A DNA stretch of 64,000 bases from Verrucomicrobiota bacterium (GTDB lineage: Bacteria; Verrucomicrobiota; Verrucomicrobiia; CAIQCK01), in contig JAPLTX010000061.1 of the NCBI GenBank assembly GCA_026397915.1, positions 94,731 to 158,730 of the forward strand, read 5' to 3'. Positions 30,675-50,723 of the stretch are shown in pieces. The translations under genes and the position numbers were made by a program. The notes beneath the pieces are model-generated. The model saw only the letters and a list, made by a program, of their open reading frames with translations, did not search any database and was not told the DNA's origin. Position 1 is the stretch's first letter. Each line of letters starts with the position of its first letter.

Positions 30675-30702
30675 GGGAAAATGGAGTGTTGGAGTGGTGG
30701 AG

Positions 30703-31149
30703 TTATGGAGTGGCGGCGTCGGCCTGATCCAGCTTGCTGGTCTTGATGCGAAAGTTCAGTTCCCTCGCGACCGCCACGGCGCGGACGATGTAGTCGGGCA
30801 CGTTGGCCGCGTGCAGCGCGCCGAGCATCGTCGCCAGTTCGTTCTCCACGTGCGGCAGGTTGGAACACGCCTCTTCGCGCTTCATGCCGTCGCCAGCGAG
30901 GTAGCGGAGCAGATACTTTTGCAGCGCGTGCTCGTAGATGTCCAAGTCCGCGTGCCGAGCCAGCGGCAGCGCGCCAACCGGGGACGGCGCTTTCATCACA
31001 TCCGTGTGCGGCGGCCTCACGGGCGGCCCTTCCGGCCCGTCGGTGATGGCTTGCAGCGCGGCGGACATTTTATTTCTAAAACCTTCACCCCGACACAGCT
31101 GACAGTTGGCGTCGTTGCAGTATGTTTGATGATCGGAAATCAGTCTCAC
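30703..31149 (-). CDS. hypothetical Cys-containing phage protein (GTG start overlapping rSAM stop)
   Basis: 148 aa; CNDANCQLC motif; GTGA overlap with upstream stop. Confidence 0.3.
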   Translation of the reverse strand: MRLISDHQTYCNDANCQLCRGEGFRNKMSAALQAITDGPEGPPVRPPHTDVMKAPSPVGALPLARHADLDIYEHALQKYLLRYLAGDGMKREEACSNLPHVENELATMLGALHAANVPDYIVRAVAVARELNFRIKTSKLDQADAATP

Positions 31150-31877
31150 GGCTCCACCTCGTTCTTGATCAGCCGGCCAAGGTTCTTCTTCTGGCGGATT
31201 TCAATGCCCGCGCATTGTAACAACCGAATCAGTCGGAGAACGTCATGCTCGTCTGGTTCCACGAGGCCGTGTCCCTTGGAGTCTGCACCAATGTTGACGA
31301 ATGTCGGACGGGCGGCCTCAATCCAGTCAGCCAACTCCACCGGGTTGAAGTCGAGGACCGGCTCTATAGTGATGAACGTCGGCATCGTCGGCCAGTAGGA
31401 CCGAATCCGCTTAAAGTGCGAGATGCGGTTGCGCGGGGCTGGTGCGTCGCCCATGACTTGATGCCACCGATTACTTTCAATCGTGACGCCTACAATGAAG
31501 TTTCCGGGACGGAAGAATCGGTTGTCCGCGAACACGTCGAACAATCGCTCAGGATTCTTCGTCTGAAAAACGAACCTGTTTTCCTTCCACTCGAAGCAGT
31601 GCTGGAGGATAAGGCGAATCCAAGACTCGGGAACGTCGGCAGCAAACAGGTCGCTGCAATGCTCGATGAAGATCGTCTTGCCGGTGCCGTAGTTGACCGC
31701 CAGTTCCTTTTTCTCCAACCGCAGCGGGCCTTTATAGTGACCCGTGCGGTAGCCGGGGCCAGACTTCACGTAGCAGTAGCCGCAACGGTGCGGGCATTCT
31801 CCGCGCAGGTGCGTGTGGGTGTGCGTCACCCAGCCTTGATACATGTTGGAACCGTCTTGGACCTTGGTTAGTGGCAT
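31146..31877 (-). CDS. radical SAM-like enzyme (CxxxCxYC; phage Gp37/Gp68 DUF5131-like)
   Basis: GECPHRCGYCYV cluster-binding motif with aromatic residue before third Cys; 243 aa. Confidence 0.6.
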   Translation of the reverse strand: MPLTKVQDGSNMYQGWVTHTHTHLRGECPHRCGYCYVKSGPGYRTGHYKGPLRLEKKELAVNYGTGKTIFIEHCSDLFAADVPESWIRLILQHCFEWKENRFVFQTKNPERLFDVFADNRFFRPGNFIVGVTIESNRWHQVMGDAPAPRNRISHFKRIRSYWPTMPTFITIEPVLDFNPVELADWIEAARPTFVNIGADSKGHGLVEPDEHDVLRLIRLLQCAGIEIRQKKNLGRLIKNEVEP

Positions 31878-31986
31878 GGTGGGGCCTCCGAAGGTAGGGA
31901 CGGACCGCCGGGCCGTCCGTTGTTTCCAGTCATCGGCGCGCCCAGCGGTCGCGCCCTACCCAGCAGAATGAAAAGAGGCTTGGTGT

Positions 31987-32178
31987 TCATCGCGCGGCCT
32001 CCTGTGTTTTGAACGCCGCCAGTATTTTCCTGAGTGCGGTCTTCTCGGCGTAGAAAACCGTTGACCGCGACAATCCCATCATCCGCGCAACCGTCCTGTG
32101 GCTGCGAATTGGTCCGAGGGCATTCGCCAGGTCTCGCGTTGCTGTTGCGGATGCTCCCCATTTTGTGGTCCTGTTCAT
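31987..32178 (-). CDS. small HTH DNA-binding protein
   Basis: 63 aa; TVARMMGLSRSTVFYAEKTALRKI helix-turn-helix; ATGA overlap with 3D-domain gene stop. Confidence 0.35.
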   Translation of the reverse strand: MNRTTKWGASATATRDLANALGPIRSHRTVARMMGLSRSTVFYAEKTALRKILAAFKTQEAAR

Positions 32179-32677
32179 CGCGCCAGTTCCAGTCCCCCAT
32201 CCGCTCTGCGGTAGGTTCCCGCCGCGAGGCGCTGGCCGGCGGCGATGATCTCGGCCATGCGGCGCTCGAACCGCTCGTCGTCGAGCTTCCGCTGCCACTC
32301 GCGGCGCGTGAGGATCGTCACCGGCATCCATCGCCAGCCGAATCGCTTTGCCTCTTCGTGTGTCGCGAAGAGCAGGTCGAGGCGGTTTGCGCCTTTGATG
32401 TCTCGGCCGGTGTCGTCGGCGCGGTTCCAACGGCCGTTGACGTGGACCATCGAGCCGAGCGGGATGCGGCGAGGGTCCACGGCCACGATCTGGCCGACCG
32501 CCTGCCGCCCCGTGGCCGTGAGGCCGCAGGCATTCGGCCCGCAGCAGATTCGGCACGGGCAATAGGCGGTGACGCGGACCCAGCGGGTCGAGGCGGCGAG
32601 GGCGGGAGATGGGAGATGGCAGATGGCAGATAGGAGGAGCAGGGCAGTCCCCAACTTCCAGCTTCCAACTCCCATCT
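32175..32677 (-). CDS. secreted 3D-domain (MltA/RlpA-like) cell-wall hydrolase, candidate endolysin
   Basis: 167 aa from MGVGSWKL...ALA/AS signal peptide; VRVTAYCPCRICCGPNACGLTATG...GSMVHVNGRWNRADDTG 3D domain. Confidence 0.55.
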
Positions 32678-32692
32678 GCTTCGTTCTCCTCC

Positions 32693-33154: not shown

Positions 33155-33159
33155 GGCAG

Positions 33160-33567
33160 TCAGAGGTTCAACAGCTTTTGTTCGCGGAGGGCGTTGGCCT
33201 TCGCGGCGGCGAAGAGTCCGCGCGCCTCGAAGTCGGAGCAGGCGCGATAGACGCCGCCGGCGGAAGCGGCGGGAGTTGGGAGATGGGAGTTGGGAGTTAG
33301 GGCCGGAGATTCCACCCTCCCATCTGCCAACTCCGATCTGCCATCTGCTTTACCCACGAGCACCACGAAGCCGAGTTGGTAGAGTTCCGTGACGCGGGGG
33401 CGCATGTCCACGAGAAACAGCGGGTTGTTGGGCCGCATCTTCACCGCCAGTTCCTTCGTCGTGCAAGGGCCGTGGACTTTGAGCGCCTCCAGAACTTCGA
33501 GGCGCAGGTCCACAAGGTATTTGGCCTTGAGGCTGGCGAAGGTTTCGTTCCTAAAATCAACGGGCTT
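33160..33567 (-). CDS. hypothetical phage DNA-binding protein (winged-helix-like N-domain); C-terminus reads through a tandem repeat
   Basis: MKPVDFRNETFASLKAKYLVDLRLEVLEALKVHGPCTTKELAV. Confidence 0.3.
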   Translation of the reverse strand, partial: KPVDFRNETFASLKAKYLVDLRLEVLEALKVHGPCTTKELAVKMRPNNPLFLVDMRPRVTELYQLGFVVLVGKADGRSELADGRVESPALTPNSHLPTPAASAGGVYRACSDFEARGLFAAAKANALREQKLLNL

Positions 33568-33771
33568 CATAATTAAGCGCAAGCCTCAGTTGCACCCCCC
33601 CCCATTTTGGATTTGGCGCTTGTGCGCGGCGCAGACTTGAACGCGATAAGCTTCGCCGCTGCTCGTGTCGGTAAACGTGCCGTTGGCGATGTGATGACAG
33701 CCTGGCCACTTGCAGTAGAACGGCGCGCGGCCCCGCGTGGTCTTGGTGCTGAAGAGTGTTTTCATGGCAGT

Positions 33772-34344
33772 TCAGAACGGGATGTCGGCGGTTAGGGCTG
33801 CCGGCTGAGGGCTGAAAGCTGAAGGCTGAGAGCTGACAGCTTTGCGCCGATTCCTCACCGTGTAAACGAGACACCAGACCTGACGCTCGGTTGCCTCGGC
33901 CAGGCTGCACTTGAACTGCCTGCGGCAGATGGCGGCGGCGTAGCTCTCGTGCAGGCCGCGCTCGCGGAGGGACTCGCGCAGCTTGAACATCGCCAGCCGG
34001 ATCGGCTCGGTCGCCACGCGTTCCTCCGCGCGCCGCGCCGCCGCGGCGTTGCCTTTGAGCATAAGGAACCGGCCCTCGATGAGTTTGTATTCGCGCTGTG
34101 TCGCGCCACGCAAAGACGTGTAGCCGCACGCAAACATTTGCTGGGTGTGCCGCCAGTCGTCCAACTCGCCCTGGCTGGCGGCGGGCCGGCCATAGACCTC
34201 CTCGAACGCCTCGCGCGCTAGGATGCAGAGGTGCGCCTTCTGGCCGTTCTCGAGAGGCGCGCTGGGCGACGGCACGGGCCGTCCGCTGCCGTGGCGAAAC
34301 ACGGCGCGGAAGTCGTCGCTCATGATGTCGGCGGGGATGATCAT
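33772..34344 (-). CDS. GemA-like (Mu gp16 family) regulatory protein, tentative
   Basis: 190 aa; KAHLCILAREA...DDWRHTQQMFACGYTSLRGATQREYKLIEG pattern resembles Mu GemA family. Confidence 0.3.
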   Translation of the reverse strand: MIIPADIMSDDFRAVFRHGSGRPVPSPSAPLENGQKAHLCILAREAFEEVYGRPAASQGELDDWRHTQQMFACGYTSLRGATQREYKLIEGRFLMLKGNAAAARRAEERVATEPIRLAMFKLRESLRERGLHESYAAAICRRQFKCSLAEATERQVWCLVYTVRNRRKAVSSQPSAFSPQPAALTADIPF

Positions 34345-34375
34345 ATTGAAGCTCCCAGCTTTCAGCTCTCAGCTT

Positions 34376-34630
34376 TCAGTTCTCATTTGCGGGAGTGATG
34401 GAGTGTTGGAGCGATGCTTGTTCCAACGCGCGCGCAATTCTATCCACCGCGTCGGTTACAAGGTCGTGATATGAAGCCTGCCTTCCCGCCAAGGGAACAA
34501 CGCAAGTCTTTGAGACCCCGCCTCCGGCGTTGGTGATGGCCACGTAGATTACAACTCCGTTTTCTTCTAACGCCGTCTTCGCCAGCTCCTGGCCAAGGTT
34601 GAAGCAAGTGTTTATATACACAGCCTTCAT
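34376..34630 (-). CDS. small hypothetical phage protein
   Basis: 84 aa from MKAVYINTCFNLGQ; ATGA coupling to upstream gene. Confidence 0.25.
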   Translation of the reverse strand: MKAVYINTCFNLGQELAKTALEENGVVIYVAITNAGGGVSKTCVVPLAGRQASYHDLVTDAVDRIARALEQASLQHSITPANEN

Positions 34631-34995
34631 GATTCCTCCTCGCACTGCTGGCAGATGCAGTTGTTCCCGCCGGGGTTGCAGCAGGCGGTGGAGCCTGGCA
34701 GGTTGCAGCGCGGGCATTCATAGACCGCGTGGATCGCGGGGTCGAATGTCATGCCGCACTTCGGGCACTTGGCGTCCGCTGATTGCTCGGCGATGATCTG
34801 GCCGAGCGTCTTCCACGGATAGCCCTGCAACACCGGCACGAGCCGGATGTCAACGCTGCGCTCCGTCAGAAACTTCGCGGCCTCCGCGAGCGTGTCGCAC
34901 TGGTGGACCACGCGCCACGATCCGCTCCCTTGTTTGATCTGCCAGCGGTCCTGCCCGACGCGTTTGCCGATGCGATATTCTTCCTTCACGCTGCC
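34627..34995 (-). CDS. zinc-ribbon phage protein (CPKC...CPRC)
   Basis: GTG start overlapping Gam-like stop; C-terminal double CxxC. Confidence 0.3.
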   Translation of the reverse strand, partial: GSVKEEYRIGKRVGQDRWQIKQGSGSWRVVHQCDTLAEAAKFLTERSVDIRLVPVLQGYPWKTLGQIIAEQSADAKCPKCGMTFDPAIHAVYECPRCNLPGSTACCNPGGNNCICQQCEEES

Positions 34996-35513
34996 TCCTG
35001 TGCCGGCGTCTCGGCGGCGGTTTCGGGCTTGGGGCGGATGAAGAACTGTTCGTCCTGGCAGAACTGGATGCCGAGGGCGGTCTGCTTTTCCGGCGTGAGC
35101 GTCTCGCGGTCGGCCAGCAGCGCGTCCTTGTCCAGACTGAGCTTGGCGCGGACATAGACTTTGCTCCACGAGGCTTTGACGGCGCGCTTGATGACGTCGG
35201 CCCACTTGATCTTCTTGTTGGCCGTCTCCACGCGGTGCGGCGTCATCTCGAAGCCGAACACGGCGAGGCTGGTCTCGCGGCTCTTCTTGTCGGTGAACAG
35301 CCCGCCACGGTTGGCCGCGCAGAAGGCGAGGATGGTTTCCTCGTCGAGCGTGATCTCGGCTTCCTTCTTTGTGATGCCGGCTTGGTGCTGTTTCTCAACG
35401 GCGGCGACCTCGGTGTCCTTGGCGGCTTTGAGCGTCGTCAGTTCGATGCGTTTGCGCACGACGGCGGCAACAGCCGTGTCGAGCGATTCGGGTGATGTGA
35501 TTTTTAGATTCAT
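34986..35513 (-). CDS. gam: host-nuclease inhibitor protein Gam-like (Mu Gam family)
   Basis: 175 aa; N-terminal coiled coil then ...FCAANRGGLFTDKKSRETSLAVFGFEMTPHRV... as I recall the Mu Gam core (WCEANRDELT...VSWRVRPPSV; motif recalled from memory, not checked against a Mu Gam sequence). Confidence 0.5.
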   Translation of the reverse strand: MNLKITSPESLDTAVAAVVRKRIELTTLKAAKDTEVAAVEKQHQAGITKKEAEITLDEETILAFCAANRGGLFTDKKSRETSLAVFGFEMTPHRVETANKKIKWADVIKRAVKASWSKVYVRAKLSLDKDALLADRETLTPEKQTALGIQFCQDEQFFIRPKPETAAETPAQEAA

Positions 35514-36552: not shown

Positions 36553-36771
36553 CTACGCAGCCTCCTGTGTTTTGAGAAAGCGAGCGCCGTCCTGTCGAAG
36601 ATTCGAGTGCGAACGAAACCCGCAACTCGCCGTGTCCCACATCGCTGACACGAATCGGAGTCCACGCTTGAAGAACCGGCGCTGTCTGGCGTTGCCGCGA
36701 ATGTGGCACCCGTCCGAATGTCCAACGTCGTTGAATGGCAATGAAGTGTTTGCGGTGATGGTCTGTCTCAT
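36553..36771 (-). CDS. small hypothetical early protein
   Basis: 72 aa; ATG overlaps MuB-like stop (ATGA). Confidence 0.25.
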   Translation of the reverse strand: MRQTITANTSLPFNDVGHSDGCHIRGNARQRRFFKRGLRFVSAMWDTASCGFRSHSNLRQDGARFLKTQEAA

Positions 36772-37871
36772 CGTGTTGCCTCCGATTTGGCGGTGATCTC
36801 GCGGGCGATGTCGTCGAGCGTTGCGCCCTTCCTCAGCGAGATGGCGAGCGGCTTGATCTTCACGGCCTCGCGCACGAGGATGTTGACGAACTGTCGGAGG
36901 TCAATGGCCTCGTCTCCGTGGTCGTGCGCCACGCGGCGGCAGACGCGGTTGACGAACTTGAAGTAGCCGTGCGAGAGCGCAAACGGCTCGATGGCGGCGA
37001 CGGCCTTCTCCAGCACGCCCTTCCCGAACGCGATCCGGTCCTTGAACATCAACTCCACGTCGCCCTGTTCGATGACGCTGAGGTCAATGCGCTCGTGCAT
37101 CCGATTGTGCGTGAGTTGCTGCGCCTCGAAGTAGCCCTTCGACACCTCCAGCCGCTGCATGAGCGTGTTCTGCGCCGAAACAATGAACTCGCCCGGTGTC
37201 TGATTCACCAGCGTCTTGACGAGGTTCAACATGCGCGGTGTCAGGTGATGGGCCTCGTCAATGCCGATGCAGAGGCGCTTCTTGTTCAGGTGCTCGACGA
37301 GCTTGCGCATCCGCTGGGTCGTGGAGACGGGCATCTCGAACTGGACGTTCTTGTCCGGCTCCTTGGGCTTGAAGCCGAGCGCGCCGAGAATCCGCCCCAG
37401 CATCTCGTGATCGGTCCACGTCTCGTCGGCCTCGGTGAACGTGACGCGCACCGGATACTTCATCTCCAGGGACTGGCGGGCCTTGGTCTTGCCGCTGCCG
37501 CTCGGCCCCTGCATCCAGATCAGCCGCGTGTTGTCCTGTTCGCGCATGATCTCCAAGAACGCCACCCGCAGCCGCATGCACGGCGTGAGATCGTGGTTGA
37601 TCGGCTCTTCGTCGGGGGCCGACTTCTCCAGGTTGTCCATCGTGCTGGCGACGGTGCGATAGCGCAGCACCCAGCTTTCGAGGTCGCCCGCCGAGTATTC
37701 CCCGGCGAGGATGGCGTTGAAGGTCTTGGCGCTGCCGAGGTCGGCGAACTCGCGCGCGAGCTTGTCGCGCGTCCATCCTTTGTCGAGTTGGTAACGCTCG
37801 GCGCGCTGGGCGAGCGCGCGCAACTCCGCGCGCACCGGGTCGATCTGCGGGTCATTGTGGGTCGTATTCAT
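36768..37871 (-). CDS. MuB-like AAA+ ATPase, transposition target DNA activator
   Basis: 367 aa; N-terminal HTH then Walker A MQGPSGSGKTKA; immediately downstream of transposase as in Mu A-B. Confidence 0.7.
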   Translation of the reverse strand: MNTTHNDPQIDPVRAELRALAQRAERYQLDKGWTRDKLAREFADLGSAKTFNAILAGEYSAGDLESWVLRYRTVASTMDNLEKSAPDEEPINHDLTPCMRLRVAFLEIMREQDNTRLIWMQGPSGSGKTKARQSLEMKYPVRVTFTEADETWTDHEMLGRILGALGFKPKEPDKNVQFEMPVSTTQRMRKLVEHLNKKRLCIGIDEAHHLTPRMLNLVKTLVNQTPGEFIVSAQNTLMQRLEVSKGYFEAQQLTHNRMHERIDLSVIEQGDVELMFKDRIAFGKGVLEKAVAAIEPFALSHGYFKFVNRVCRRVAHDHGDEAIDLRQFVNILVREAVKIKPLAISLRKGATLDDIAREITAKSEATR

Positions 37872-37888: not shown

Positions 37889-39880
37889 TCAGGTTTCGAT
37901 CAGGTCACCGCGGGCGCGGGCTTCGGCCTCGCGTTTGGCGATGTAATCGGCCGCGGCAGTGCGGTCGAAAGAGACGCGGGAAACGGCCGGGGCCGTTCCT
38001 CGCGTTGAAAATGTGGCCGGCTCGGTATCGGTGTCTCTCGCGTTTGCGGCGGACTCGCCGAGCCGGCTCACCGTGTCGTGGTGTGTAAGTGGAGATTGGA
38101 GTTTGGAGATGGCGACGCGGCTGACGTTGCCCCGGCCGTCGCTGTCGAGGTGGACAACGGCGGCGCGTCCGGTGCTCTCGATGGCCGCGAAGCTCGAGCG
38201 CACCTGGGCGGTGCGGAGCTTGCGCGCGGCGGTGGCCGGCGAACGGTAACCCTCGCAATCAACGAACTGCGGCCCGTCGGCACTCCAGGGAGCGATGCCG
38301 ATGAACTGGAACCGCTTCCAGTTCTCGCGATTCATCGGGCGCGTTTCGTTATTGAAGAGCGCACAGCCGGCCTCCGGCGCGAGCGGGTCGAACCGCGCGA
38401 TGACGCGGTGGCCGCGCTCGATGAACGGAAAAGCCGCCGTCGCCACGTGGAACCGAAACGGGCGCGCATAAGGCGCAACGGAAACCTGCACATGGCCCGC
38501 GAGTTTGGTGCCGACGCCGACCTCGCTGATGGTCGGCTTGAAAAACCAGAACTCCTCCTCGCTCACCGCCGGCAGCGATCCGCCGCGCGCGGCCATGTCG
38601 CGCTCCCACGTCACGTCGGGAGCTTCCGCTTTGAGGCCGTCAACCTTGCGCGCCCGCTTGTTCAGGAACTGGCAGCCGGCGACAAGCTTTTGGATCAGCA
38701 CCTCGCCCCACGGAATGAAGCCGCACTTGGCCGGATCGGCCTTGCCCTTGTTCACGGCCATCATGTCATCGGTAGGCTGCTCGTATTCGCCGCGCGTCTT
38801 GCCGATGCGCACGCCATGCACGCCCATGATCTTGTGGAACGGCCGAAACGAGGACTCGATGCCGCCCTTGGCGTTGGAGGAGAAAACGTGGTCCACGGGG
38901 ATGACGCTGGCGATGCCGCCCCAGCGGTTGCCGGCGTCGTCAATCTGAATACCGTCGAGCGCGTTGTTTTCCCAGCGACCGCGTTCGTCGCGGAAACGGC
39001 CAAACCGCCCCCAGCGCCGCGTGAGAAGTTCCTTGAACCGCGCGATGTCCTCGGCGCGGTAGCTGTCCGCAAAGCGCGCGATGGGATAGACGCCGAGCCA
39101 CTTGCCGCTGCGCACGTCGCGCGCCATCAGGATTTGACGCCCCACGCGCCAGTAGCCGTCCGGGTCCATCCAGAAAAACGGAACGTCGGTTGACACGTCG
39201 TCAAACTCGATGATGTCCCCGCTGTTCACAGGCACCCATGCGCCGTGGTCGTCGTAACCGTAAAAGCCGCGGCGCACGCTGAAGACGATGCTCCGCAGCG
39301 CGTCGCGGCTGCGCGCCGCTGCCATTTCCTCCTGCGTCACGCGCACGTCGCGCATGATGCTTTGCGGGTATCGGCCCGTCAGCCGGTTCGCGGCGAGGGC
39401 CTCGCGGACCTCCGGCCGGCACACCGGCGAGTCGGCCATCAACTCGATGCCCATTGGCACGCTCTCGGTCTTTAGGACAAACGTGCGGGCGAGCTTCTTC
39501 TCTGCGTCGTTGAGGTTCACTTTTTTCTTTCGCCCGCAGTTCTTGTATTGCCGGCCGAGCTTTTCCTCGCCGCCGGCATCGAGCAGCCGCGCGTAGCGCA
39601 ACAGCGTGCAGTGCGGCTTGCCGAGTATCCGAGCCGCCTCCGCCGCGCTCGACGCCATCGGCGGCTGGCCGTTCTCTCCGGGCTTTTGCAGCGCGCGCCA
39701 CTCGCGCACGAGCGACGCGCGGCGTTGCTTCCAGGCGTTGTCCAAGGACTGCGGAGTCGGAACCGCCGCCGCGGCGTCGCTGGAAACAATCGCGCCCGGA
39801 GGTCGCGATCCACCTGTAGCGGCGGTCTCTGACCGCCGATCCGGCGCGGGCGAGGAGTTCGCCCCCGCGCAGTGTTGCAT
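37889..39880 (-). CDS. Mu-type DDE transposase (MuA-like)
   Basis: ORF 37889..40132; central rve/DDE core (SGDIIEFDDV..., ...VIPVDHVF...), N-terminal HTH; start uncertain (39880 or 39658); ~590-664 aa. Confidence 0.75.
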   Translation of the reverse strand: MQHCAGANSSPAPDRRSETAATGGSRPPGAIVSSDAAAAVPTPQSLDNAWKQRRASLVREWRALQKPGENGQPPMASSAAEAARILGKPHCTLLRYARLLDAGGEEKLGRQYKNCGRKKKVNLNDAEKKLARTFVLKTESVPMGIELMADSPVCRPEVREALAANRLTGRYPQSIMRDVRVTQEEMAAARSRDALRSIVFSVRRGFYGYDDHGAWVPVNSGDIIEFDDVSTDVPFFWMDPDGYWRVGRQILMARDVRSGKWLGVYPIARFADSYRAEDIARFKELLTRRWGRFGRFRDERGRWENNALDGIQIDDAGNRWGGIASVIPVDHVFSSNAKGGIESSFRPFHKIMGVHGVRIGKTRGEYEQPTDDMMAVNKGKADPAKCGFIPWGEVLIQKLVAGCQFLNKRARKVDGLKAEAPDVTWERDMAARGGSLPAVSEEEFWFFKPTISEVGVGTKLAGHVQVSVAPYARPFRFHVATAAFPFIERGHRVIARFDPLAPEAGCALFNNETRPMNRENWKRFQFIGIAPWSADGPQFVDCEGYRSPATAARKLRTAQVRSSFAAIESTGRAAVVHLDSDGRGNVSRVAISKLQSPLTHHDTVSRLGESAANARDTDTEPATFSTRGTAPAVSRVSFDRTAAADYIAKREAEARARGDLIET

Positions 39881-41265: not shown

Positions 41266-41342
41266 GTTCTTCTTTCCTTTTGGGGTTGGTTGTTGGCAGT
41301 GACTGCGGCAAAAGTTGAGAGCTGAAAGCTGAAAGCTGAGGG

Positions 41343-42575: not shown

Positions 42576-42681
42576 TTTGGTGTTGCCTTTCGCGGCTTCC
42601 GGCGGGACTCTCAGCGAAGTTGTAACAGGTCGTGCCATTTGACGGGCACCCTTTTAAGCAAATTTGCTGGCGCTGTCAACA

Positions 42682-43125
42682 ATGAATAGCAATTTTGTTA
42701 AAGATTTTTCTGACCGTCTGTCGGGGTTGATGGCCGAGCGGGGATTCACGCAACAACAACTCGCCGACAAGATCACGTCCTCGCAGACGAGCGTGTCGCA
42801 CTGGCTTCGAGGAAATGTCCCTTCCAGGCGAGCACTCAAGACACTCGCGGACTGTTTCAGTGTGAACATCGAATGGCTGCGATCCGGCCAAGGTTCGCGC
42901 GTGCCAGCGTCTGTTGTTCGCGAGACCGTAGAGGTCGCATTGGGTGGAGAAATAAAAGACCATAAGCTCATGCTCGAAACGTTGATCGGTGGAATGCAGA
43001 CGCCGCAGCTTCAGGACTTGGTGATAGAGCAAACGCGGCTCGGAAATGTGGGTTTAGTGTTGTTGCTTGGAACAGAGTTGAGTAAACGTAGGGACGTGAA
43101 GCGCAGAACGGAGACAAGGAAATGA
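42682..43125 (+). CDS. XRE-family (Cro/CI-type HTH) transcriptional regulator, candidate prophage repressor
   Basis: RGFTQQQLADKITSSQTSVSHWLRGNVPSRRALKTLADCFSVNIEWL; divergent from ner-like early operon. Confidence 0.6.
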   Translation: MNSNFVKDFSDRLSGLMAERGFTQQQLADKITSSQTSVSHWLRGNVPSRRALKTLADCFSVNIEWLRSGQGSRVPASVVRETVEVALGGEIKDHKLMLETLIGGMQTPQLQDLVIEQTRLGNVGLVLLLGTELSKRRDVKRRTETRK

Positions 43126-43601
43126 GACTGGCACTGATTCTGATGGTGGCGCTGGCGGGTGCGACGGCGCGCGGAGCGGAAAACCAAATTCTCTACGCGA
43201 ACAAGGCGGAGTGCATCAAATGGATTGGCCGGTCCAACGTCGAGGTTGATTTCAAGGCGTCGTTTTGCAGCGCCGTGCAGGCCAAATACCATGTTGGCTT
43301 AATGCAAGTGGACGCCTTCTACGTGGACGGTCGAATCCAGCATGTTCGATATTCCGGCGCGAGCCGTCCGGTGGCGGAGGCGATTGTCCGCCAAAACACC
43401 GCGGGCCAAGAGTGGAAGCCGGGCGGAAATGGGAAAGCCGTCGAATGGAAACGCTCGGATGGAGCCAGCGCATGGTGGGCACCGAACACGCTCGTGCTCC
43501 AAACCAAAGAGTGGCCGGGCATCCTGAAGAGAATAGCCGACGAGCGGCCGGGGGCGCGAGGGCGCGGCAGGGCAAGCGCCCAAAACGGCAAGGAGAACTA
43601 A
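43122..43601 (+). CDS. secreted hypothetical protein (signal peptide)
   Basis: MRLALILMVALAGATARGAE; paralogous N-terminus to next gene. Confidence 0.4.
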   Translation: MRLALILMVALAGATARGAENQILYANKAECIKWIGRSNVEVDFKASFCSAVQAKYHVGLMQVDAFYVDGRIQHVRYSGASRPVAEAIVRQNTAGQEWKPGGNGKAVEWKRSDGASAWWAPNTLVLQTKEWPGILKRIADERPGARGRGRASAQNGKEN

Positions 43602-43605
43602 GACA

Positions 43606-44250
43606 ATGAGACTGGCACCAATTCTAATCCTGTCGGCTGCGGTTTTGGCGGAAGCGGGCGCGCAGACGATTTATCACGATTCAATCTCGCGGCTTACGGG
43701 CAGAGTTGGCGGGATGGGCGGCGGTGACATCTCGTTCACCAGCGCGAATGGACGGGCTGGCGTGCCGGAGGAAATGCGGACTGGCGGCAAGGTTTATCCC
43801 AACGTGCGGTTTGGCCCTGCCAAGGGCGAGCAGGTGTTTGTCTCGTGGAACGGCGGCTCCGGCTGGATGCACGCGATGTTTTTGCCGGAGGAAGTTCAAC
43901 GGCGGTTTGGGTTCAACACGGCACAACTCCGTGAGGCGCGCGAAGCTGCGGAACTGGAGTCCGCGCGCGTCGCCGAGATCAAACGCCAGGAACGCATTGA
44001 GAAATACGGGGAGACGTTCAACGGGAAAGTGCAGCAAGTCATCAAAGACGGCCTGCTGGTTTCGATTGGAGAATCTTACGGCGTCGGCGATTCGCTGTTG
44101 TTAACCGGGCATCCGAAAGAGGCCACGATGATCGAAGACATTCGCATCCGCTTTCTCGCCAAACCGGCCGGGCGCTATCAGTTTGTCAGTGTGACCGGCG
44201 CGACGCGCACGATCAGCAAGTGGTCTTACATCGGCGAGCCGCACGACTGA
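43606..44250 (+). CDS. secreted hypothetical protein (signal peptide, coiled coil)
   Basis: MRLAPILILSAAVLAEAGAQ signal peptide. Confidence 0.4.
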   Translation: MRLAPILILSAAVLAEAGAQTIYHDSISRLTGRVGGMGGGDISFTSANGRAGVPEEMRTGGKVYPNVRFGPAKGEQVFVSWNGGSGWMHAMFLPEEVQRRFGFNTAQLREAREAAELESARVAEIKRQERIEKYGETFNGKVQQVIKDGLLVSIGESYGVGDSLLLTGHPKEATMIEDIRIRFLAKPAGRYQFVSVTGATRTISKWSYIGEPHD

Positions 44251-44334: not shown

Positions 44335-44769
44335 ATGTTTACGGCAGCCATCAGCTCTCAGCTCTCAGCTCTCAGCCTTCCACTCCTTACCGCCGCGCCG
44401 ATCACACTCGATAACTCCACCGTCGTCACCGTCGGCATGATCGTGGCCGTGGCGGCGATGGTGAAGTGGGCGACGGACATCTGGGCCAACATCCGGCCCA
44501 ACCGCTCCTTTGACGACAAGCTGGTGGCGGCGCTGACGGCGTGCCAGGGGCAGTGCTCTAAAAATCTCAAGGTGGCCACCGACGACATCGAGGTGATCCA
44601 GGCCGACCGCCGTCGCAACACGACGGACCTCTGGAAGGAAATCAACGGCCTGAAGGAAACGATCCAGACGTTCTCGAACGACTTGAACCGCGCGCTGGGC
44701 CGGCTGGAGGGGCGGGCGGAAATGCTCGACGCGGTGCGCGACGTGATCGCGAAGAAAACGAAAGACTAA
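44335..44769 (+). CDS. membrane protein, holin-like candidate
   Basis: 144 aa with TM segment VVTVGMIVAVAAMVKW; upstream late-promoter-like motif. Confidence 0.3.
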   Translation: MFTAAISSQLSALSLPLLTAAPITLDNSTVVTVGMIVAVAAMVKWATDIWANIRPNRSFDDKLVAALTACQGQCSKNLKVATDDIEVIQADRRRNTTDLWKEINGLKETIQTFSNDLNRALGRLEGRAEMLDAVRDVIAKKTKD

Positions 44770-44806
44770 CCCCCAACGGCGCGCCCAGCGGTCGCGCCCT
44801 ACCTAC

Positions 44807-45085
44807 ATGACACCCGATCCCATTTTTGTCCGCGCCGCCGAATGCCGGCGGGCGGTGCGCGATTACCTGGCCAAGCGCCTTCGCCTGGCGTTCGAGCTGT
44901 CGGCTGTCCGCTCGGCGGTAAACCGAACCGGCGGCGACTGGAGCGACGAGGAAGTAAACAGCGCGCTCGTGTATCTGGCGGGCCTGACGCCGCCGCACGT
45001 GAAGACGGTTCGCGACAAGCTTGGCCCCACGCTCTACTACCAGGCGACCACCGGGGGCGTGCAAGCAATGGAAAACGGGGATTAA
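44807..45085 (+). CDS. hypothetical phage protein
   Basis: 92 aa ORF. Confidence 0.2.
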   Translation: MTPDPIFVRAAECRRAVRDYLAKRLRLAFELSAVRSAVNRTGGDWSDEEVNSALVYLAGLTPPHVKTVRDKLGPTLYYQATTGGVQAMENGD

Positions 45086-45092
45086 CCAGACG

Positions 45093-46058
45093 ATGAAACC
45101 GATTCGTTACAAGCTCGGCAAGGTGGCTATCCCGCAGTCGGCGCTGCTCAGGATCGGCGCGGCCATCGTGTGGCGCAACGCGGCCATCGTGGGCTTCCTT
45201 TTTTCGCTGCTCGTCATCGCGCTGCTGCTGACCGGCTGCGCTAATTCCGCACTCCGCACTCCGCACTCCGCAATTCCGCCGATGCCGCCGAAGCCAACGA
45301 CGGCGGCGACGGCCGGCGCGATTGAGAGCGCCACTGCGAACGCCAGCGAGGCGCAGACCAGCGTCCGGGCCGGGCGCGACCTGGCCAAACAAGACGAGGG
45401 CTTGAAGGCGGTGCCGCATCTGGACAAGGCGGACGCTCAACTCGACACGACGCGCGCCGATCTGGCGGCAGCGAAGGCGCACGCGACGGAACTGGAGGGG
45501 AAGATTGCGGCGGATCGGGCGGCGCACGATATGCAGGCGACCGCCTACCAATCCCAGATTGGAAATTTGAAATCTGAGATGGCCGCCGGGGCGGCGGCGA
45601 ACAAGAAGCTGGCGAAGGAAAACACCGACCTAAAGAACGAAGTGCTGCGCAAGGCGCAACTCGTGATCGGCGGCGCTGGCTCGTTCCTGCTGCTCGTGGC
45701 CGCCGGCTGTTTTGCTGCGTGGATCTGGCTCGGCTTCGGCGCGGGCTGGAAGGTGGCGCTGGTGTCGGCCACGGTCGGCGCGGCGGCCCTCGCGCTGGCG
45801 ATGATGCTCAAGGCCATCGTTGTCTCGACGATTGTGGCGCTGGCGGCGTGCGCCGTGGCGGCGCTCGGCTACGCGGCGTGGCACCTGTGGCGGGACAGCC
45901 GCGATACGCTGGCCAGCGTCGTGGAGGGCGTGGAAACCGCAAAGGCCGGACTCGACCCGGAGGCGGTATCGAAGCTCCACACCATGCTGCGGTTCAAGAC
46001 GAGCGATGCCGACAAGAAGCTGATCGAGCTACTCAAATCGAAGCTCAAGCTGTCATGA
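45093..46058 (+). CDS. membrane lipoprotein with coiled coil and C-terminal TM segments (spanin-like lysis accessory candidate)
   Basis: lipobox LLTGC after hydrophobic stretch, long coiled coil, multiple C-terminal TMs. Confidence 0.3.
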   Translation: MKPIRYKLGKVAIPQSALLRIGAAIVWRNAAIVGFLFSLLVIALLLTGCANSALRTPHSAIPPMPPKPTTAATAGAIESATANASEAQTSVRAGRDLAKQDEGLKAVPHLDKADAQLDTTRADLAAAKAHATELEGKIAADRAAHDMQATAYQSQIGNLKSEMAAGAAANKKLAKENTDLKNEVLRKAQLVIGGAGSFLLLVAAGCFAAWIWLGFGAGWKVALVSATVGAAALALAMMLKAIVVSTIVALAACAVAALGYAAWHLWRDSRDTLASVVEGVETAKAGLDPEAVSKLHTMLRFKTSDADKKLIELLKSKLKLS

Positions 46059-46270
46059 GCGCGACCCGACATTTACCGGCGCGGCGGGCGCTCCGCCGAC
46101 TGGCGGCGGCGTCGGCGCAGATGCTCGGCGGGGACGTGGCCGTGTGCCTGACAGTGGCCGGGCCGAAGGGCGCGCGCGTGGAGCGTTACCTGTGCAGCGC
46201 GGTGGACGCGATGGCGCTGGCGACGATGCTGCAACTGGCGGTGGCGCGGGCCGCGAAGGCTGAGAGCTGA
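46055..46270 (+). CDS. small hypothetical protein
   Basis: 71 aa; ATGA overlap with upstream stop. Confidence 0.2.
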   Translation: MSATRHLPARRALRRLAAASAQMLGGDVAVCLTVAGPKGARVERYLCSAVDAMALATMLQLAVARAAKAES

Positions 46271-46296
46271 AAGCTGAAAGCTGAAAGCTGAAAGCT
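46257..46296. repeat. tandem heptamer array (AGCTGAA)n upstream of terS
   Basis: gctgagagctgaaagctgaaagctgaaagctgaaagct. Confidence 0.8.
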
Positions 46297-46302
46297 AAAA
46301 CA

Positions 46303-47013
46303 ATGAGCGACACAACCTACAAGGGCAAGATCGGCCGGCTGCCGCGCGCGATGCGCGACGAGGTGTGCCGCCGGATGCGGGACGGCGATAGCGACAGGAG
46401 GATTCTCGTCTGGCTGAACGCCGACGCCGAGGCGAAGAAGCGGATGGAGACCTACTTCGACGGCCAGCCGCTGAACGGAAGCAACATGAGCGAGTGGCGC
46501 GCGGCCGGCTACCAGGACTGGAAGCGGCAGCAGGACCGCGACGCGCAAACCGAGAAGCTTTGCAAGTGGGCGATGAATGCCGTGGACGGCAAGCCCGGCG
46601 ACAAGGCGAGCGCCATCGCGGCGGGCCAGTTGTGCTCCGCGCTGGAGGATTTTGATGTCGAGAAGTTGAAGGATTTGCTGGCGACCGATCCGAGCAATCA
46701 TTCGGAGATTATCAAGAGCCTGGCAAGGCTGCGCACGAGCGACGCGTCGGTGAAGAACGCGGAGGTGAACGCGGTAAAGTTGCAGCAGGCCGAGGAAGCG
46801 CTCCGCCAGGCCAACGAGCGGCTCGTGATGGAGAGGGGGGAGTTTGAAATCCGTTACTGCCAGGGAGTCCTGAAGGGAATCGCGGACGCCGAGGCGCATC
46901 GCATCGCGGGGCTGAACATCTCCAACGACGAGAAGATTGCGTTGATGCGCAAGCACTACTTCGCGGACGTGGACGCGCTCCAAAAATCCGGCGCGGTGAA
47001 GCTGCCGGATTAA
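46303..47013 (+). CDS. putative terminase small subunit (Mu gp27/DUF3486-like)
   Basis: 236 aa; basic N-terminal DNA-binding-like region GRLPRAMRDEVCRRMRDG; directly upstream of terL. Confidence 0.45.
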   Translation: MSDTTYKGKIGRLPRAMRDEVCRRMRDGDSDRRILVWLNADAEAKKRMETYFDGQPLNGSNMSEWRAAGYQDWKRQQDRDAQTEKLCKWAMNAVDGKPGDKASAIAAGQLCSALEDFDVEKLKDLLATDPSNHSEIIKSLARLRTSDASVKNAEVNAVKLQQAEEALRQANERLVMERGEFEIRYCQGVLKGIADAEAHRIAGLNISNDEKIALMRKHYFADVDALQKSGAVKLPD

Positions 47014-47018
47014 CCCCG

Positions 47019-48713
47019 ATGAAGGCCAAGAAACAGCGCCGGCTCTATGAGAACGTGGCGATGGTGATGGTGCGCGAGCGCCGCCACTGCGCGCTGCTCT
47101 GGACCCGGCGCGGTCGCAAAAGCACAACGCTCGGCTCCATCGCCTTCGACGAAATGGCGGCGGCCGACGACCGGACGGTGATCCAAGCCAGCGCGTCGTT
47201 GCTGCTCGGCAAAGAGGGCGTCGGCGCGGCGCTGTCGGCCCTCGAACAGGCCATGATCGTCAAGGCCGAGGCCGAGGCGGTGCGCGACGTGTTCTCGTCG
47301 GGCGCGGAGGATCGCGACCTGAACTTCCAGGTGGCGGCTCGGCCCAAAGACGGCCAGCCCGGCGACTCCAAGGTCATGAAGGGGTTGACGGAAGACGATT
47401 TTGCCGGCCTCTACCGGGCGAGCCGCCTGGAACTTCGCCTCTACTTTGACCGTTCGCGCTACTCTCGGCTGCTGATCATCGCGCCGAATCCGGCGACGGC
47501 GCGCTCGTGGCGCGGGACGGTGTTGCGCGACGAGGTCGGCTACACGCCGCCCGCGCTGGAAACCGATTTGCAGGTCGCGATGGACCCGATGATGCGGGAC
47601 ACGCCGGACCTGAAGCTCGTCTATGGCTCCAACCTGCCGGGCGACAGCCGGCACCCGTGGTTCGCGATGACGCTGCCGCGGGAAATCAAGGCGGCAAACG
47701 AGGAAGATGAGTTCCCGGCGAACGCGTCCGGTCATCTCTTTGTTAGCCAGACCGGACTTCTTGTGCATCGCGTGGCGCTCAAAGACGCTTATCAGGCCGG
47801 CCACCAACTCTTCGACGACAAGGGCCTGCCGATGTCGTATGAGGACTGCGCGAAGTCGCCGCAGTTCCGCGTGGGCTGGGACATCTCCTACGCGCTCAAC
47901 CACAAGACGGGCGGCGCGGGCGCGGTGGACCTGATTGCGCTGGTGAACGCGCAGCGCGCGGGCGTCGGCGAGTGTGCTTTTGTTTACGTGGAGAATGAAG
48001 GCGACTGGCAGCGCGCGCTGTCATTGCTCCGCGGCCACCTGACCAACGGCAGGGTGAACCTCGGCTTGGACGTGGCCAGCACGGCGGAAGAGAAGAGCAA
48101 CCCGTCGAGCATCACGGTGACGGAAGAAACGTCGGGCATGTATTACCAGCGGCTCGTCGCCGTCTTCAAAACGAAACACCGGGCGGTCGTGAGCCAGCGG
48201 TTGAAGGATGTCTGCGCGGTGGTCGCCGGCCGTAGCGACGGCGGGCGGGTTCAGAAGTTGAGCATTGACGCCGGCAACGAGCGAATGGCCGCCGAGGAAA
48301 CCGCGAACGATTTGCGCGGCGTCGTTACCGTCGAGCTTGTCATTCCATCGGCAAGCATCCATCCGCCAGGCTACAGCGACTCGGTAAATTTCAAGACCTA
48401 TCAGAGCGACCTCTACAGCGACGGACTCAACAACGGCCTGATTGCGGTTCCGCCGGACGAATACATCAAGCTCGACCATTTGCTTCCGATCAAGGACATG
48501 GGCCGTTACACGTGCGCCGTGGACAGTGAGGGCAGGCACGGTGATTCGTTCGATTCCGGCAAGCAGTCCTACTACGGTTTTTATTCCAGCGGCGGCGCAG
48601 TTGAGGCCCACGCCGTCCGCGTCGGCGGGAATGTTTCCACGGCCCACACCGGCAGGAACAATCCGCTCGCGCCGCACTTCGACAAGGCAGGAGGTTCAAG
48701 ACTATGGATTTGA
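47019..48713 (+). CDS. terminase large subunit (Mu gp28-like)
   Basis: 564 aa; deviant Walker A WTRRGRKSTTLG; size/order terS-terL-portal. Confidence 0.55.
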   Translation: MKAKKQRRLYENVAMVMVRERRHCALLWTRRGRKSTTLGSIAFDEMAAADDRTVIQASASLLLGKEGVGAALSALEQAMIVKAEAEAVRDVFSSGAEDRDLNFQVAARPKDGQPGDSKVMKGLTEDDFAGLYRASRLELRLYFDRSRYSRLLIIAPNPATARSWRGTVLRDEVGYTPPALETDLQVAMDPMMRDTPDLKLVYGSNLPGDSRHPWFAMTLPREIKAANEEDEFPANASGHLFVSQTGLLVHRVALKDAYQAGHQLFDDKGLPMSYEDCAKSPQFRVGWDISYALNHKTGGAGAVDLIALVNAQRAGVGECAFVYVENEGDWQRALSLLRGHLTNGRVNLGLDVASTAEEKSNPSSITVTEETSGMYYQRLVAVFKTKHRAVVSQRLKDVCAVVAGRSDGGRVQKLSIDAGNERMAAEETANDLRGVVTVELVIPSASIHPPGYSDSVNFKTYQSDLYSDGLNNGLIAVPPDEYIKLDHLLPIKDMGRYTCAVDSEGRHGDSFDSGKQSYYGFYSSGGAVEAHAVRVGGNVSTAHTGRNNPLAPHFDKAGGSRLWI

Positions 48714-50341
48714 AAACATTTTTCAACGCGGACGCGGCGACCATCGTGAAGGCGATGGTTCCCGACGAAATGAAGCAGCGGCTCACGAAGTTCTTCGTGT
48801 CGCTGATTCCGCAAACGATCATCACGCGGTGGGACTCGCGCAAGCAGCCGGCAGCTGCCGCGCCGACGGTGGACGCGGACCAGTTGGCGACGATCATCCG
48901 CAACGCCGAGGCCGGCAACACCGACACGCTGTTCGCGCTCTACCGCGACCTGCTGTTCGACAGCCACATCCTGGGCGAATACCAGAAGCGGCTCGCGGCG
49001 ATGCTCGGCGACCAGATCAACGTCGGCCCTGAAGACGAGGAAAAGGAGGAAGATATTGACCTCGCGTGGCGCTGCCAGATGATGCTGAAGCGGAGCCGTG
49101 ACTGGTTTGACGCGATGCGCCACCTGCTGTCGTCGTGCTTCTGGCCGGTGGCCGTGGTGGAAAAGGTCTGGCGGCCGTCCACCGATCCGGCCTTGAAGTT
49201 TGAACTATGGCGGCTCGTCCCGGTGCCACATCACTTGCTCGATTTCACGACAGGCAAGCTGCGGATCGCGGACGTGGACGACAACGGCAACAAGACGGGG
49301 ACGTTTCACGACGCCGACCCGATGCGCTACATCGTCTGCCGCGTTCACATCATGCCCACCGACGACCACTGGGGCGGGCCGGGCCGGGCGGTGCTTTTCT
49401 GGTGGCTGCTGAAAACGCAAACGGTCGGCTGGTGGGCGCGCTTCCTCGAAAAATACCAGCCGGTGTATGTCGGCAAGTTCAACAGCGGCGACGAGCGCAG
49501 CCGGCTCGTGCTGGAAACGGCGCTGGCCGAGGCCGTCAAGCTCGGCGGCATCGTCATCAACAAGGAAACCGAGTTCTCCATCGAGCAGGCGCTCGCCCAG
49601 GGCAACCTCGACGGTTTCGAGAAGTTCTACAGCCTCTGCACGCGCGAGATCAGCAAGGTGTTGACCGGTCACGCGATGAGCCAGGAGTCGCCCGCGAGCG
49701 GACTGAACAGCGGCGAGGCCGGCGCAAAAGAACAGGTCCGCCAGGACATCCGTCAACTCGACAACATCCGGCTTGGAGCGGTGGTGGCACAGCAGTTGTT
49801 TGACGACTTCCGCCGATACAACAATCTGCCCGGCGGGCTGCCGGAAGTGTGGTGGGGCAGCGAGAGCTACACTGAAGCGAAGTCCACGGCTGAGGTGCTC
49901 CAGGCGACGAATCAGGCCGGGCTTGAGCCGACCGACGAGGCGATTCCGGTATTGTCGAAGCGGCTGGGGTTCAGTCTCCGCCGAAAGGCGGCCGCCGCCC
50001 CGCCGGCATTCGGCGCGCCGCTGGCCGCGCTGGCCGCGACGGGCACAGCGCCCATCGGCGGCACCGATCCGGCCGCCGAAGCGAATGCGGCGTTGATGGC
50101 CAAGGCCGCGCCCGGACTGGCCGCGGCATTTCGCGGATCACACGCGCCCATCCGGCTGGCGATTTTGGCGAGCACGTCGCCGGCAGACTTGGAGCAGCGG
50201 ATGCGGATGCTCTATCCAGACTGGAGCGAGAAGAAACTTCAACCGATGCTGGCCGACGCGACGGAGGCGTTCAACACGCTGGTGGCCAACGCGGCGGCCG
50301 GCGCTGTGAGGACGGCAGCGAGGCCAGGCGCGAGGCGATAA
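48704..50341 (+). CDS. portal protein (Mu gp29/DUF935-like)
   Basis: 545 aa following terL, overlapping by 10 nt; size consistent with Mu-like portal. Confidence 0.5.
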   Translation: MDLKTFFNADAATIVKAMVPDEMKQRLTKFFVSLIPQTIITRWDSRKQPAAAAPTVDADQLATIIRNAEAGNTDTLFALYRDLLFDSHILGEYQKRLAAMLGDQINVGPEDEEKEEDIDLAWRCQMMLKRSRDWFDAMRHLLSSCFWPVAVVEKVWRPSTDPALKFELWRLVPVPHHLLDFTTGKLRIADVDDNGNKTGTFHDADPMRYIVCRVHIMPTDDHWGGPGRAVLFWWLLKTQTVGWWARFLEKYQPVYVGKFNSGDERSRLVLETALAEAVKLGGIVINKETEFSIEQALAQGNLDGFEKFYSLCTREISKVLTGHAMSQESPASGLNSGEAGAKEQVRQDIRQLDNIRLGAVVAQQLFDDFRRYNNLPGGLPEVWWGSESYTEAKSTAEVLQATNQAGLEPTDEAIPVLSKRLGFSLRRKAAAAPPAFGAPLAALAATGTAPIGGTDPAAEANAALMAKAAPGLAAAFRGSHAPIRLAILASTSPADLEQRMRMLYPDWSEKKLQPMLADATEAFNTLVANAAAGAVRTAARPGARR

Positions 50342-50696
50342 ATCCCCCGCGCAATTCCGGCGTGTCGGCCCGGCCGTGTAGCCACGAAAGATAATCGTCT
50401 GAGTGAATCTTCAGTTTGATCAGCTTCAACCCCGCCCGCTTCGTGCGGCCGATGGGTGTCCAAACGACCCGACTGGCGTTGGAATGGCAACGCGTCCGCT
50501 AAGACCACGCGCTGGCCTCCTACGAAGGACGGTTCGCCACGTCGTAACCCTTTTGACGCGCGTCACTCCTTGAAGCCGCTCGACCCTTTTCAAACCCCCG
50601 TTTCAATCATTCCTGTCCGCCGCCGGCCGCCTCACACACCGTGTAACGCAACCCACACAAAAGTAGGCGGTTAAGACCATTTCAAACTAAATCAGA

Positions 50697-50723
50697 CCGT
50701 TTCAAACATTCTGGTTAGTGCCG
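50697..50723 (+). repeat. right terminal inverted repeat of prophage; second subterminal copy CCATTTCAAACT at 50677..50688
   Basis: CCGTTTCAAACATTCTGGTTAGTGCCG; tandem upstream near-copy 9 nt away, like multiple transposase binding sites (R1/R2). Confidence 0.7.

Follow-up and report, generated by a model that had tools for sequence, protein, structure and literature searches.

Transposable phages related to Mu keep their genome length, typically 37-39 kb, and their gene order highly conserved despite extreme sequence divergence (Olo Ndela et al. 2021, PMC8705779). Burkholderia phage KS10 and Curvibacter phage TJ1 are exceptions among the Mu-like phages and cannot be aligned with the others on the position of the portal gene (PMC8541194). 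The capsid genes of KS10 lie in two modules ~11 kb apart, an arrangement described as unique to that phage and with no known rationale (Goudie et al. 2008, PMC2628397). Here we analyze a 64,000-nucleotide stretch of contig JAPLTX010000061.1 from a Verrucomicrobiota bacterium (assembly GCA_026397915.1; this whole stretch is called the window), which contains a Mu-like prophage. Its packaging genes are on one arm and the head genes F, G, I and T on the other, so the head-assembly genes are split between portal and F. No description of such a split-head layout for Verrucomicrobiota was found in the literature. The explanation we favor, with a probability of about 0.85, is that this is one intact transposable Mu-like prophage of the siphovirus type whose two-arm architecture is inherited in its lineage.

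The portal gene of both KS10 and TJ1 is on the minus strand, right at the left end of the genome. As annotated, one arm of these phages carries the repressor, two genes, holin, endolysin, terS (small terminase), terL (large terminase), portal and F; the other carries a ner-like gene, A, B, early genes, Mor, I, T, G and the tail genes. The KS10-like group consists of KS10, TJ1 and Burkholderia phages vB_PR2c and vB_D1, which are transposable and of about 37 kb. Another two-arm layout has been described as B3-type (PMC8705779). In phages of this B3/BcepMu type two arms diverge from regulatory genes lying between them, and the lysis genes, terS, terL and portal are on the repressor arm; downstream of the portal, on its strand, come protease, capsid and tail genes, and the early arm ends at the genome end.

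Limits, arms and likeness to described phages

The limits of the prophage are fixed by a host histidine-kinase gene that starts at 13442, loses its reading frame at 15052 and resumes with its C-terminal part at 50724 (to 51090). When joined, the two parts align without gaps across the junction (...HLFRSY/GPKAAHIKLE...) to a paralogue at 51107-52552. Position 50723, where the sequence-only reading had stopped, thus proves to be the true right end. The features of the ends are:

15053-50723, 35,671 bp: complete Mu-like (transposable) prophage, inside the histidine-kinase gene
15049-15052 (left) and 50724-50727 (right): target-site duplication CTAT, 4 bp as read, 5 if one mismatch is allowed
15053-15079, plus strand: left terminal inverted repeat, with the motif GTTTGAAACGG at offset 17
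50342-50723, minus strand: right-end non-coding region, with the terminal inverted repeat at 50697-50723 and subterminal motif copies at 50707, 50687, 50608 and 50595

The terminal inverted repeat is 27 bp long and imperfect. Exact copies of the motif GTTTGAAAYGG number three in the whole 64 kb, all at the prophage ends: one is 17 bp in from the left end, and the right end holds the other two and two degenerate copies, all four oppositely oriented. The termini read 5'-CG...CG-3' with a 4-bp duplication (5 bp is possible with one mismatch), whereas Mu has TG...CA and 5 bp. Inverted ends with a repeated, end-confined motif, a short duplication and a split host gene mark the insertion of a transposable phage by transposition, and relatives have different flanks. 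The G+C content of the window is about 62-66%.

Genes were picked from a listing of open reading frames (ORFs) by a choice based on G+C at third codon positions (GC3). They form a minus-strand run from 15.1 to 42.6 kb and a plus-strand run from 42.7 to 50.3 kb. The rightward arm begins with the repressor and continues through two secreted proteins and membrane proteins to terS, terL and portal, whose stop is followed by 382 bp of non-coding DNA up to the prophage end:

42664-43125, plus strand: XRE/CI-type repressor, first gene of the arm (HTH_3, 7.3e-09)
43122-44250, plus strand: two genes whose products have signal-peptide-like N-termini, between the repressor and the late element (no match in family scans)
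44335-46058, plus strand: lysis-accessory candidates of 144 aa (one membrane segment), 92 aa and 321 aa, chosen by hydropathy
45093-46058, plus strand: the 321-aa candidate, with a lipobox and three C-terminal membrane segments
46303-47013, plus strand: small terminase (terS), called from its position only (no match in Pfam or PHROG)
47019-48713, plus strand: large terminase (terL), 564 aa, called from its fold
48704-50341, plus strand: portal, last gene before the right end (Portal_Mu, 4.6e-54)

The leftward arm runs from ner through the transposition genes to lysin, cargo, F-G-I-T and tail:

42393-42638, minus strand: Ner-like helix-turn-helix (HTH) protein, first gene of the arm (phrog_925, 9.7e-07)
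40420-41264, minus strand: ParB-N-like protein (match in the library of profile hidden Markov models, HMMs)
37889-40132, minus strand: putative DDE transposase (MuA analogue), 747 aa, always adjoined by the MuB-like gene
36768-37871, minus strand: MuB-like AAA+ transposition protein (AAA_22, 1.7e-13; phrog_296 'DNA transposition protein', 1.5e-21)
34986-35513, minus strand: Gam (HMM match)
32175-32675, minus strand: putative endolysin, a secreted 3D-domain protein in the position of Mu lys (5.8e-11)
31146-31877, minus strand: radical-SAM-like DUF5131 protein, cargo cassette (DUF5131, 1.5e-09)
30703-31149, minus strand: 148-aa protein, cargo cassette (homologues beside F in loci L005 and L119; no match in Pfam or PHROG HMM scans)
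29736-30674, minus strand: F, minor head protein (Phage_Mu_F, 1.6e-13; phrog_220, 6.9e-27)
29233-29730, minus strand: G, virion morphogenesis / tail completion (Phage_tail_S, 2.3e-07)
28051-29097 (ORF opens at 29115), minus strand: I, protease/scaffold (Mu-like_Pro, 4.4e-16)
27166-27984, minus strand: virion structural protein in the position of Mu Z (phrog_1731, 9.9e-24)
26162-27094, minus strand: T, major head protein (Mu-like_gpT, 6.9e-41)
25651-26070, minus strand: head-tail adaptor (HMM match)
22562-23974, minus strand: tail tape-measure protein (phrog_9483, 6.8e-12)

The order and strands given by the sequence-only reading (lysin, F-G-I-T and tail on the minus strand; terS, terL and portal on the plus strand, co-directional with the XRE regulator) are borne out by HMM matches and fold, and its calls of portal, F, G, I and T are confirmed by HMMs. 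Each head, packaging and transposition gene turned up in the prophage in a single copy. The holin- and spanin-like labels of the sequence-only reading are not confirmed: predicted membrane segments and a lipobox are present in the candidates at 44335-46058, but Pfam and PHROG HMM scans gave no match.

Two genes deserve comment. The terL product had no match in Pfam, PHROG, PDB sequences or INPHARED (50,697 cultured-phage records), and its more than 270 homologues are all unnamed, none with a Pfam domain. An AlphaFold model was built on 30 homologues (pLDDT 84); in a fold search nearly all its matches were large terminases, over the ATPase and nuclease domains (D6E, 6e-13; T4 gp17, 1e-12; then Sf6, P74-26 and herpesvirus terminases). 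The modeled fold confirms 47019-48713 as a large terminase, so the call on which the sequence-only reading had made its synteny argument depend holds by fold, not by sequence HMM. A homologue of the adjacent terS is found directly 5' of terL in 65 related loci. The putative transposase likewise had no match in Pfam and PHROG scans. A profile made from 17 homologues reaches the MuA catalytic core (1BCM) weakly, at E=0.0097, and the invariant D and E residues are present; this gene is a probable transposase. A MuB-like AAA+ partner adjoins it, as in transposable phages.

The prophage resembles Mu in having B-like, Gam, ner-like and putative A genes and the portal, F, G, I and T families. It also resembles Mu in the local order lysin ... 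F-G-I-Z-T-tail, in a repressor divergent from the early operon, and in inverted ends with a short duplication. With portal (gp29), F, G, I and T it has the head genes of the Mu type, and its 35,671 bp fall within the ~35-40 kb expected of transposable phages. Mu, however, has terS, terL, portal and the lysis-accessory genes between lys and F, whereas here these are on the repressor strand: packaging genes occupy 46.3-50.3 kb on the plus strand, and lysin and F-G-I-T 26.2-32.7 kb on the minus strand. Mu also has Mor/C, of which no homologue was detected here. No tail sheath gene was recognized among the scanned prophage genes, and as far as the genes show the tail looks like that of a siphovirus, unlike that of Mu. 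The prophage shares with B3 and BcepMu the two divergent arms with regulatory genes between them and the lysis genes, terS, terL and portal on the repressor arm. The difference is that its head and tail genes follow the early genes on the transposase arm instead of following the portal.

A portal search of cultured-phage records gave distant matches only, among them KS10 and TJ1. As in KS10, the repressor arm runs out to a genome end and carries two genes of unknown function followed by lysis genes, terS, terL and portal, and the transposase arm carries I, T and the tail genes. In KS10 and TJ1, however, F is with portal and the split falls between F and I, whereas here it falls between portal and F, and G is beside F as in Mu. 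The recognizable endolysin of KS10 belongs to the packaging arm, the only one recognizable here to the transposase arm. KS10, a myovirus, has a sheath; here no sheath gene was recognized. The portal proteins share 24% and the F proteins 31% identity, and BLAST and phmmer detected nothing else. Since split point, lysin arm, tail type and sequence all differ, we regard the prophage as a second form of the split-head design that arose independently.

Recurrence of the layout and a paired 45-nt element

Searches of genome and viral collections with the single portal protein were empty, and alignments were needed as queries. Related loci were classed by local iterative HMMs, tblastn being too insensitive. 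In a 35.8-kb contig from ENA, whose portal is 65% and F 58% identical, both arms match those of the window gene for gene except for the cargo between lysin and F. Its order is ParB, transposase, B, Gam, 3D lysin (in the same position as here), cargo, F, G, I and T, with terS, terL and portal on the other arm at the contig end. Three contigs that carry this portal diverge in sequence downstream of it, as expected if a transposing element ends just beyond it. Host genes follow the portal in locus L003 (a metagenome contig, portal 44% identical) and in a Kiritimatiellia prophage (L181), in the latter after a methylase gene.

A portal alignment retrieved 39 IMG/VR loci with at least 31% portal identity, which we treat as the same portal clade. 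In 34 of them the portal faces outward within about 3 kb of a contig end and is preceded by terS and terL; loci that extend far enough upstream also have a repressor on the same strand, with ner, A and B running the opposite way. The remaining five have the classical order portal-F-G-I. An F alignment gave a similar picture: 24 of 28 informative IMG/VR loci have A and B and then F-G-I-Z-T-adaptor-tape measure on one strand with no packaging genes in between, usually together with Gam and a homologue of the window gene 33772-34344, and four have the classical order. Twelve viral contigs (27.7-41.4 kb) are in both lists. In every one of these portal and F point away from each other on opposite strands; the 3' end of portal is 6-3020 bp from the contig end, and the starts of portal and F are 15.9-23.6 kb apart (18.0 kb in the window). 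Placement of both arms was checked by sequence overlap in all 9 pairs with overlapping loci.

On these sequence comparisons the two-arm layout is an inherited trait of a sizeable clade and not of this assembly, since many assemblies made independently have it, inserted at different sites and with portals 31-65% identical. The sequence-only reading had left a choice between a genuinely different architecture and a large inversion in this genome, and had held that uniform order in close relatives would mark the arrangement as ancestral. The comparison of gene order that it proposed (the 65% relative, the 34 of 39 portal loci and the 12 contigs with both arms) comes down on the side of the former, as ancestral for the lineage.

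A candidate cultured example, Cerasicoccus maritimus GCA_031296935.1 (locus L180), was rejected: terS and terL are not upstream of its portal, and a contig end cuts the prophage. Its related portal is followed by host ABC-transporter genes and preceded by just one gene, of 187 aa; this prophage is probably defective or further rearranged.

A repeat search found one element at two sites in the prophage, in the same orientation relative to transcription:

29129-29173, minus strand: 45-nt element, copy 1, candidate late promoter/activator site, ending 31 nt upstream of the I start codon
44259-44303, plus strand: 45-nt element, copy 2, ending 31 nt upstream of the ATG at 44335

The copies match at 44 of 45 positions (98%). 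Comparison with the homologue in L005 points to the GTG at 29097 as the probable start of I. The second copy precedes the gene that follows the repressor with its two accessory genes and that begins the lysis/packaging operon. Mu has C-dependent late promoters, Plys and PI, the latter in the G-I spacer, and by this analogy the 45-nt copies are probably paired late promoters. In six of the 12 relatives with both arms an element of 24-46 nt in the G-I spacer recurs between repressor and terS, 93-100% identical and in the same orientation (alignment scores 24-37; maximum for shuffles 12-15). A seventh pair is marginal, as is a 23-nt dyad match in TJ1 before the holin-like gene and the I homologue. 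The sequence of the pair differs from genome to genome, and this co-variation argues for a sequence-specific regulator acting at both sites. The winged-helix gene at 33160-33582 is, by position, a candidate.

We picture the prophage as follows. From a central regulatory region at ~42.65 kb the leftward arm carries ner, the ParB-like gene, transposase, MuB, early genes and Gam, and then, as in Mu, lysin and F, G, I, T and tail, with a slot for variable cargo between lysin and F. The rightward arm carries repressor, two accessory genes, lysis-accessory genes, terS, terL and portal, and stops 382 bp short of the genome end. One activator would switch on both halves together late in infection, at the 45-nt elements.

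We consider the odds about even that this prophage represents a large undescribed clade of siphovirus-type transposable phages of Verrucomicrobiota and Kiritimatiellia with a stable portal/F split and late operons coordinated by a duplicated, genome-specific activator site. If so, module splitting would be a recurrent, workable solution reached independently of KS10 and not a one-off accident. The loci compared here show that a second, independent split, at portal/F, is the normal state of a whole uncultured clade, which weakens the idea that interacting head genes need to be in one block. Matched cis-elements before both late operons offer a testable answer to how the halves are coordinated. 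Annotators and prophage finders that expect portal-F-protease-capsid synteny will mis-set the boundaries of such prophages or call them defective.

Origin of the layout and competing explanations

The breakpoints that the sequence-only reading proposed are instructive. Inverting the block between 30.69 and 50.35 kb restores a contiguous terS-terL-portal-F-G-I-T, which is the B3/BcepMu-type order; equivalent breakpoints are the junction of portal and F, and the distal end of the early arm with the genome end. Loci found through this terL family (43-59% identical across the B3/BcepMu-type prophages), every one from a Verrucomicrobiota genome, Akkermansia among them, mostly have the two-arm B3/BcepMu order, with A and B leftward and repressor, lysis, terS, terL, portal, protease, capsid and tail rightward; two have the fully collinear order of Mu. 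One ancient inversion of the early arm together with the repressor-packaging arm, in an ancestor of the B3/BcepMu type, would give the present layout. The geometry of the earlier suggestion therefore stands, since the block does flip to a known order, but not as an event in this genome: the arrangement is old, and a rearrangement at these points, if there was any, is plausibly ancient.

Several observations weigh against our favored explanation or parts of it. Many of the portal-at-end cases rest on contig ends, which could partly be an effect of assembly or trimming. The closest terL relatives of known order (57-59%) are of the B3/BcepMu type, a simple neighbour-joining tree places five loci of classical order within the portal clade, and terL and portal have different histories (in L003 the portal is 44% but terL 29% identical). 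The tree is crude, and its automatic 'K' labels outside the clade of the window are unreliable, as B3-type loci have a protease, not F, after portal. The transposase assignment is weak at the level of sequence. The late-expression scheme does not account for transcription of lysin, cargo, F and G; scans for sigma-70 promoters and intrinsic terminators around both copies were not above shuffles, and six of the 12 relatives with both arms have no clear element pair, nor has KS10. No homologue of Mor/C was found in any scanned prophage gene. Leptospira transposable prophages also lack Mor/C, which is thus not universal (PMC8705779).

The terL and portal histories differ and classical loci nest in the quick portal tree, so that the rearrangement may have run in either direction. 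A different origin is worth weighing, although we think it less likely than not: the lysis-accessory-terS-terL-portal block of a classical Mu-type ancestor would have left the lys operon and come to lie beyond the repressor, with no single B3-type inversion. The leftward arm indeed reads exactly as Mu minus that block (early genes, lysin, F, G, I and T), and one 45-nt copy sits between G and I, in the position of PI of Mu. Moreover, a classical-order member of the portal clade (L067) has terS-terL-portal between a homologue of 33160-33582 and F, the slot that in the window holds lysin, the radical-SAM gene and the 148-aa gene. L067 also makes an ancient rearrangement at the proposed points plausible. 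Against relocation, at least two rearrangements are needed where the B3-type route needs one, the early arm of a B3-type relative (L018) already includes the 3D lysin, and the tree lacks the strength to set a direction.

A recent large inversion, or a mis-assembly, that flipped 30.69-50.35 kb of a prophage with Mu/B3 order is very improbable. It has in its favor that flipping restores the order common in prophages with the same terL family. Against it, independent assemblies show the same arrangement at varied insertion sites and with portals 31-65% identical, and a right breakpoint would need to hit the 382-bp end region yet leave the terminal sites unharmed. Nor do the junctions have the inverted repeats that the sequence-only reading suggested looking for; neither inverted nor direct repeats are found there, and the best local alignment scores 10 against 9.8-10.6 for the null.

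Equally improbable is a pair of neighboring elements, that is, a Mu-like prophage without packaging genes beside a repressor-terS-terL-portal remnant or satellite. The packaging arm does have its own regulator, and its terL is of a different family from that of most same-layout relatives. Against this, a single pair of inverted ends and one duplication enclose all 35.7 kb inside one host gene, the end motif has no internal copies and no functions are duplicated. The total size is typical for transposable phages (37-39 kb, PMC8705779), and the same composite recurs as a unit in the 12 near-complete viral contigs.

The block is least of all a programmed invertible segment of the Gin/G kind, toggling between two orders: such segments occur in Mu-family phages, but no flanking inverted repeats were found (border score 10, null 9.8-10.6), no invertase is among the scanned genes (some small ORFs were outside the scans), the 12 contigs with both arms show one orientation only, and a 20-kb switch would disrupt operons. 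A G region is discussed in the KS10 paper (PMC2628397).

Cargo genes, split terminases and repeats

The slot between lysin and F holds variable cargo. In the window and in IMGVR_UViG_3300009502_002963 (L119, 8554-9569) it contains the radical-SAM/DUF5131 gene and the 148-aa gene. In the 65%-identical relative (an ERZ1426827 contig) it contains a 224-aa protein with a DNA_pol_B_thumb match and small ORFs. The radical-SAM call is upheld by the DUF5131 match and a visible CxxxCxxC motif, the Radical_SAM match itself being under the cutoff. An HTH gene had also been placed between lysin and the radical-SAM gene; the sole ORF there (31868-32200) has no HMM match and a GC3 of 0.64 versus 0.73-0.88 in its neighbors, and the stretch 31878-32174 is probably non-coding.

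At the tail-fibre end the last gene of the prophage is a fusion:

15139-16629, minus strand: glycosyltransferase-2/methyltransferase fusion, cargo gene (Glycos_transf_2, 5.8e-14; Methyltransf_24, 2.6e-06)

The corresponding position in Mu is occupied by mom, and by analogy the fusion may be host- or DNA-modifying cargo. In L181 a Dam-like methylase gene is last, after portal. Next to the fusion gene, at 16639-19020, two large tail-fibre-region ORFs have one repeated domain in common and long Pro/Thr-rich linkers made from 27-nt tandem repeats (16951-17147 and 17995-18143).

In most portal-terminal relatives terL is divided into two ORFs, one for an ATPase (~300 aa) and one for a nuclease of ~230-240 aa (L003, 6824-10005; many of L040-L076; L181, 8407-9992, where the 230-aa nuclease ORF has a weak Terminase_6C match). 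Some relatives have genes between the halves, a DNA methylase in the case of L003. The terL of the window is unsplit and belongs to another family. F of one relative at greater distance is fused to an ADP-ribosyltransferase toxin domain, Pfam ADPrib_exo_Tox (L006, 10001-11425; L007, 1614-3038).

The paralogue directly downstream of the interrupted sensor histidine-kinase gene is intact and has response-regulator, PAS and kinase parts. Positions 14753-14903 in the disrupted gene and 51839-51989 in the paralogue are 79% identical over 151 nt.

Tandem arrays of 7-8-nt units occur in spacers just 5' of genes and are C-rich and G-poor on the sense strand (e.g. CAGCTCT or CTCCAACA):

19725-19764, 25103-25123, 27997-28044, 29187-29228, 30681-30713, 33794-33841: arrays in the prophage
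34350-34416, 41311-41401, 41880-41999, 44351-44376, 46255-46300: further arrays in the prophage
65-95, 988-1016, 4131-4160, 57113-57134, 62768-62812: arrays in the host flanks

They are denser in the prophage than in host DNA, and relatives have different units (CACTGCC, TCTTCCG, CTGACTCA). These arrays could be unstructured leaders or sites like rut (Rho utilization) sites. Finally, a G+C-rich, hairpin-forming repeat of 28-33 nt (GGTAGGGCGCGACCGCTGGGCGCGCC...) is present in three copies, at 31933-31960, 41568-41600 and 44771-44803. The copies lie just after or between genes, two in the same transcriptional orientation and one in the opposite, and may be elements of the REP (repetitive extragenic palindromic) kind or terminators.

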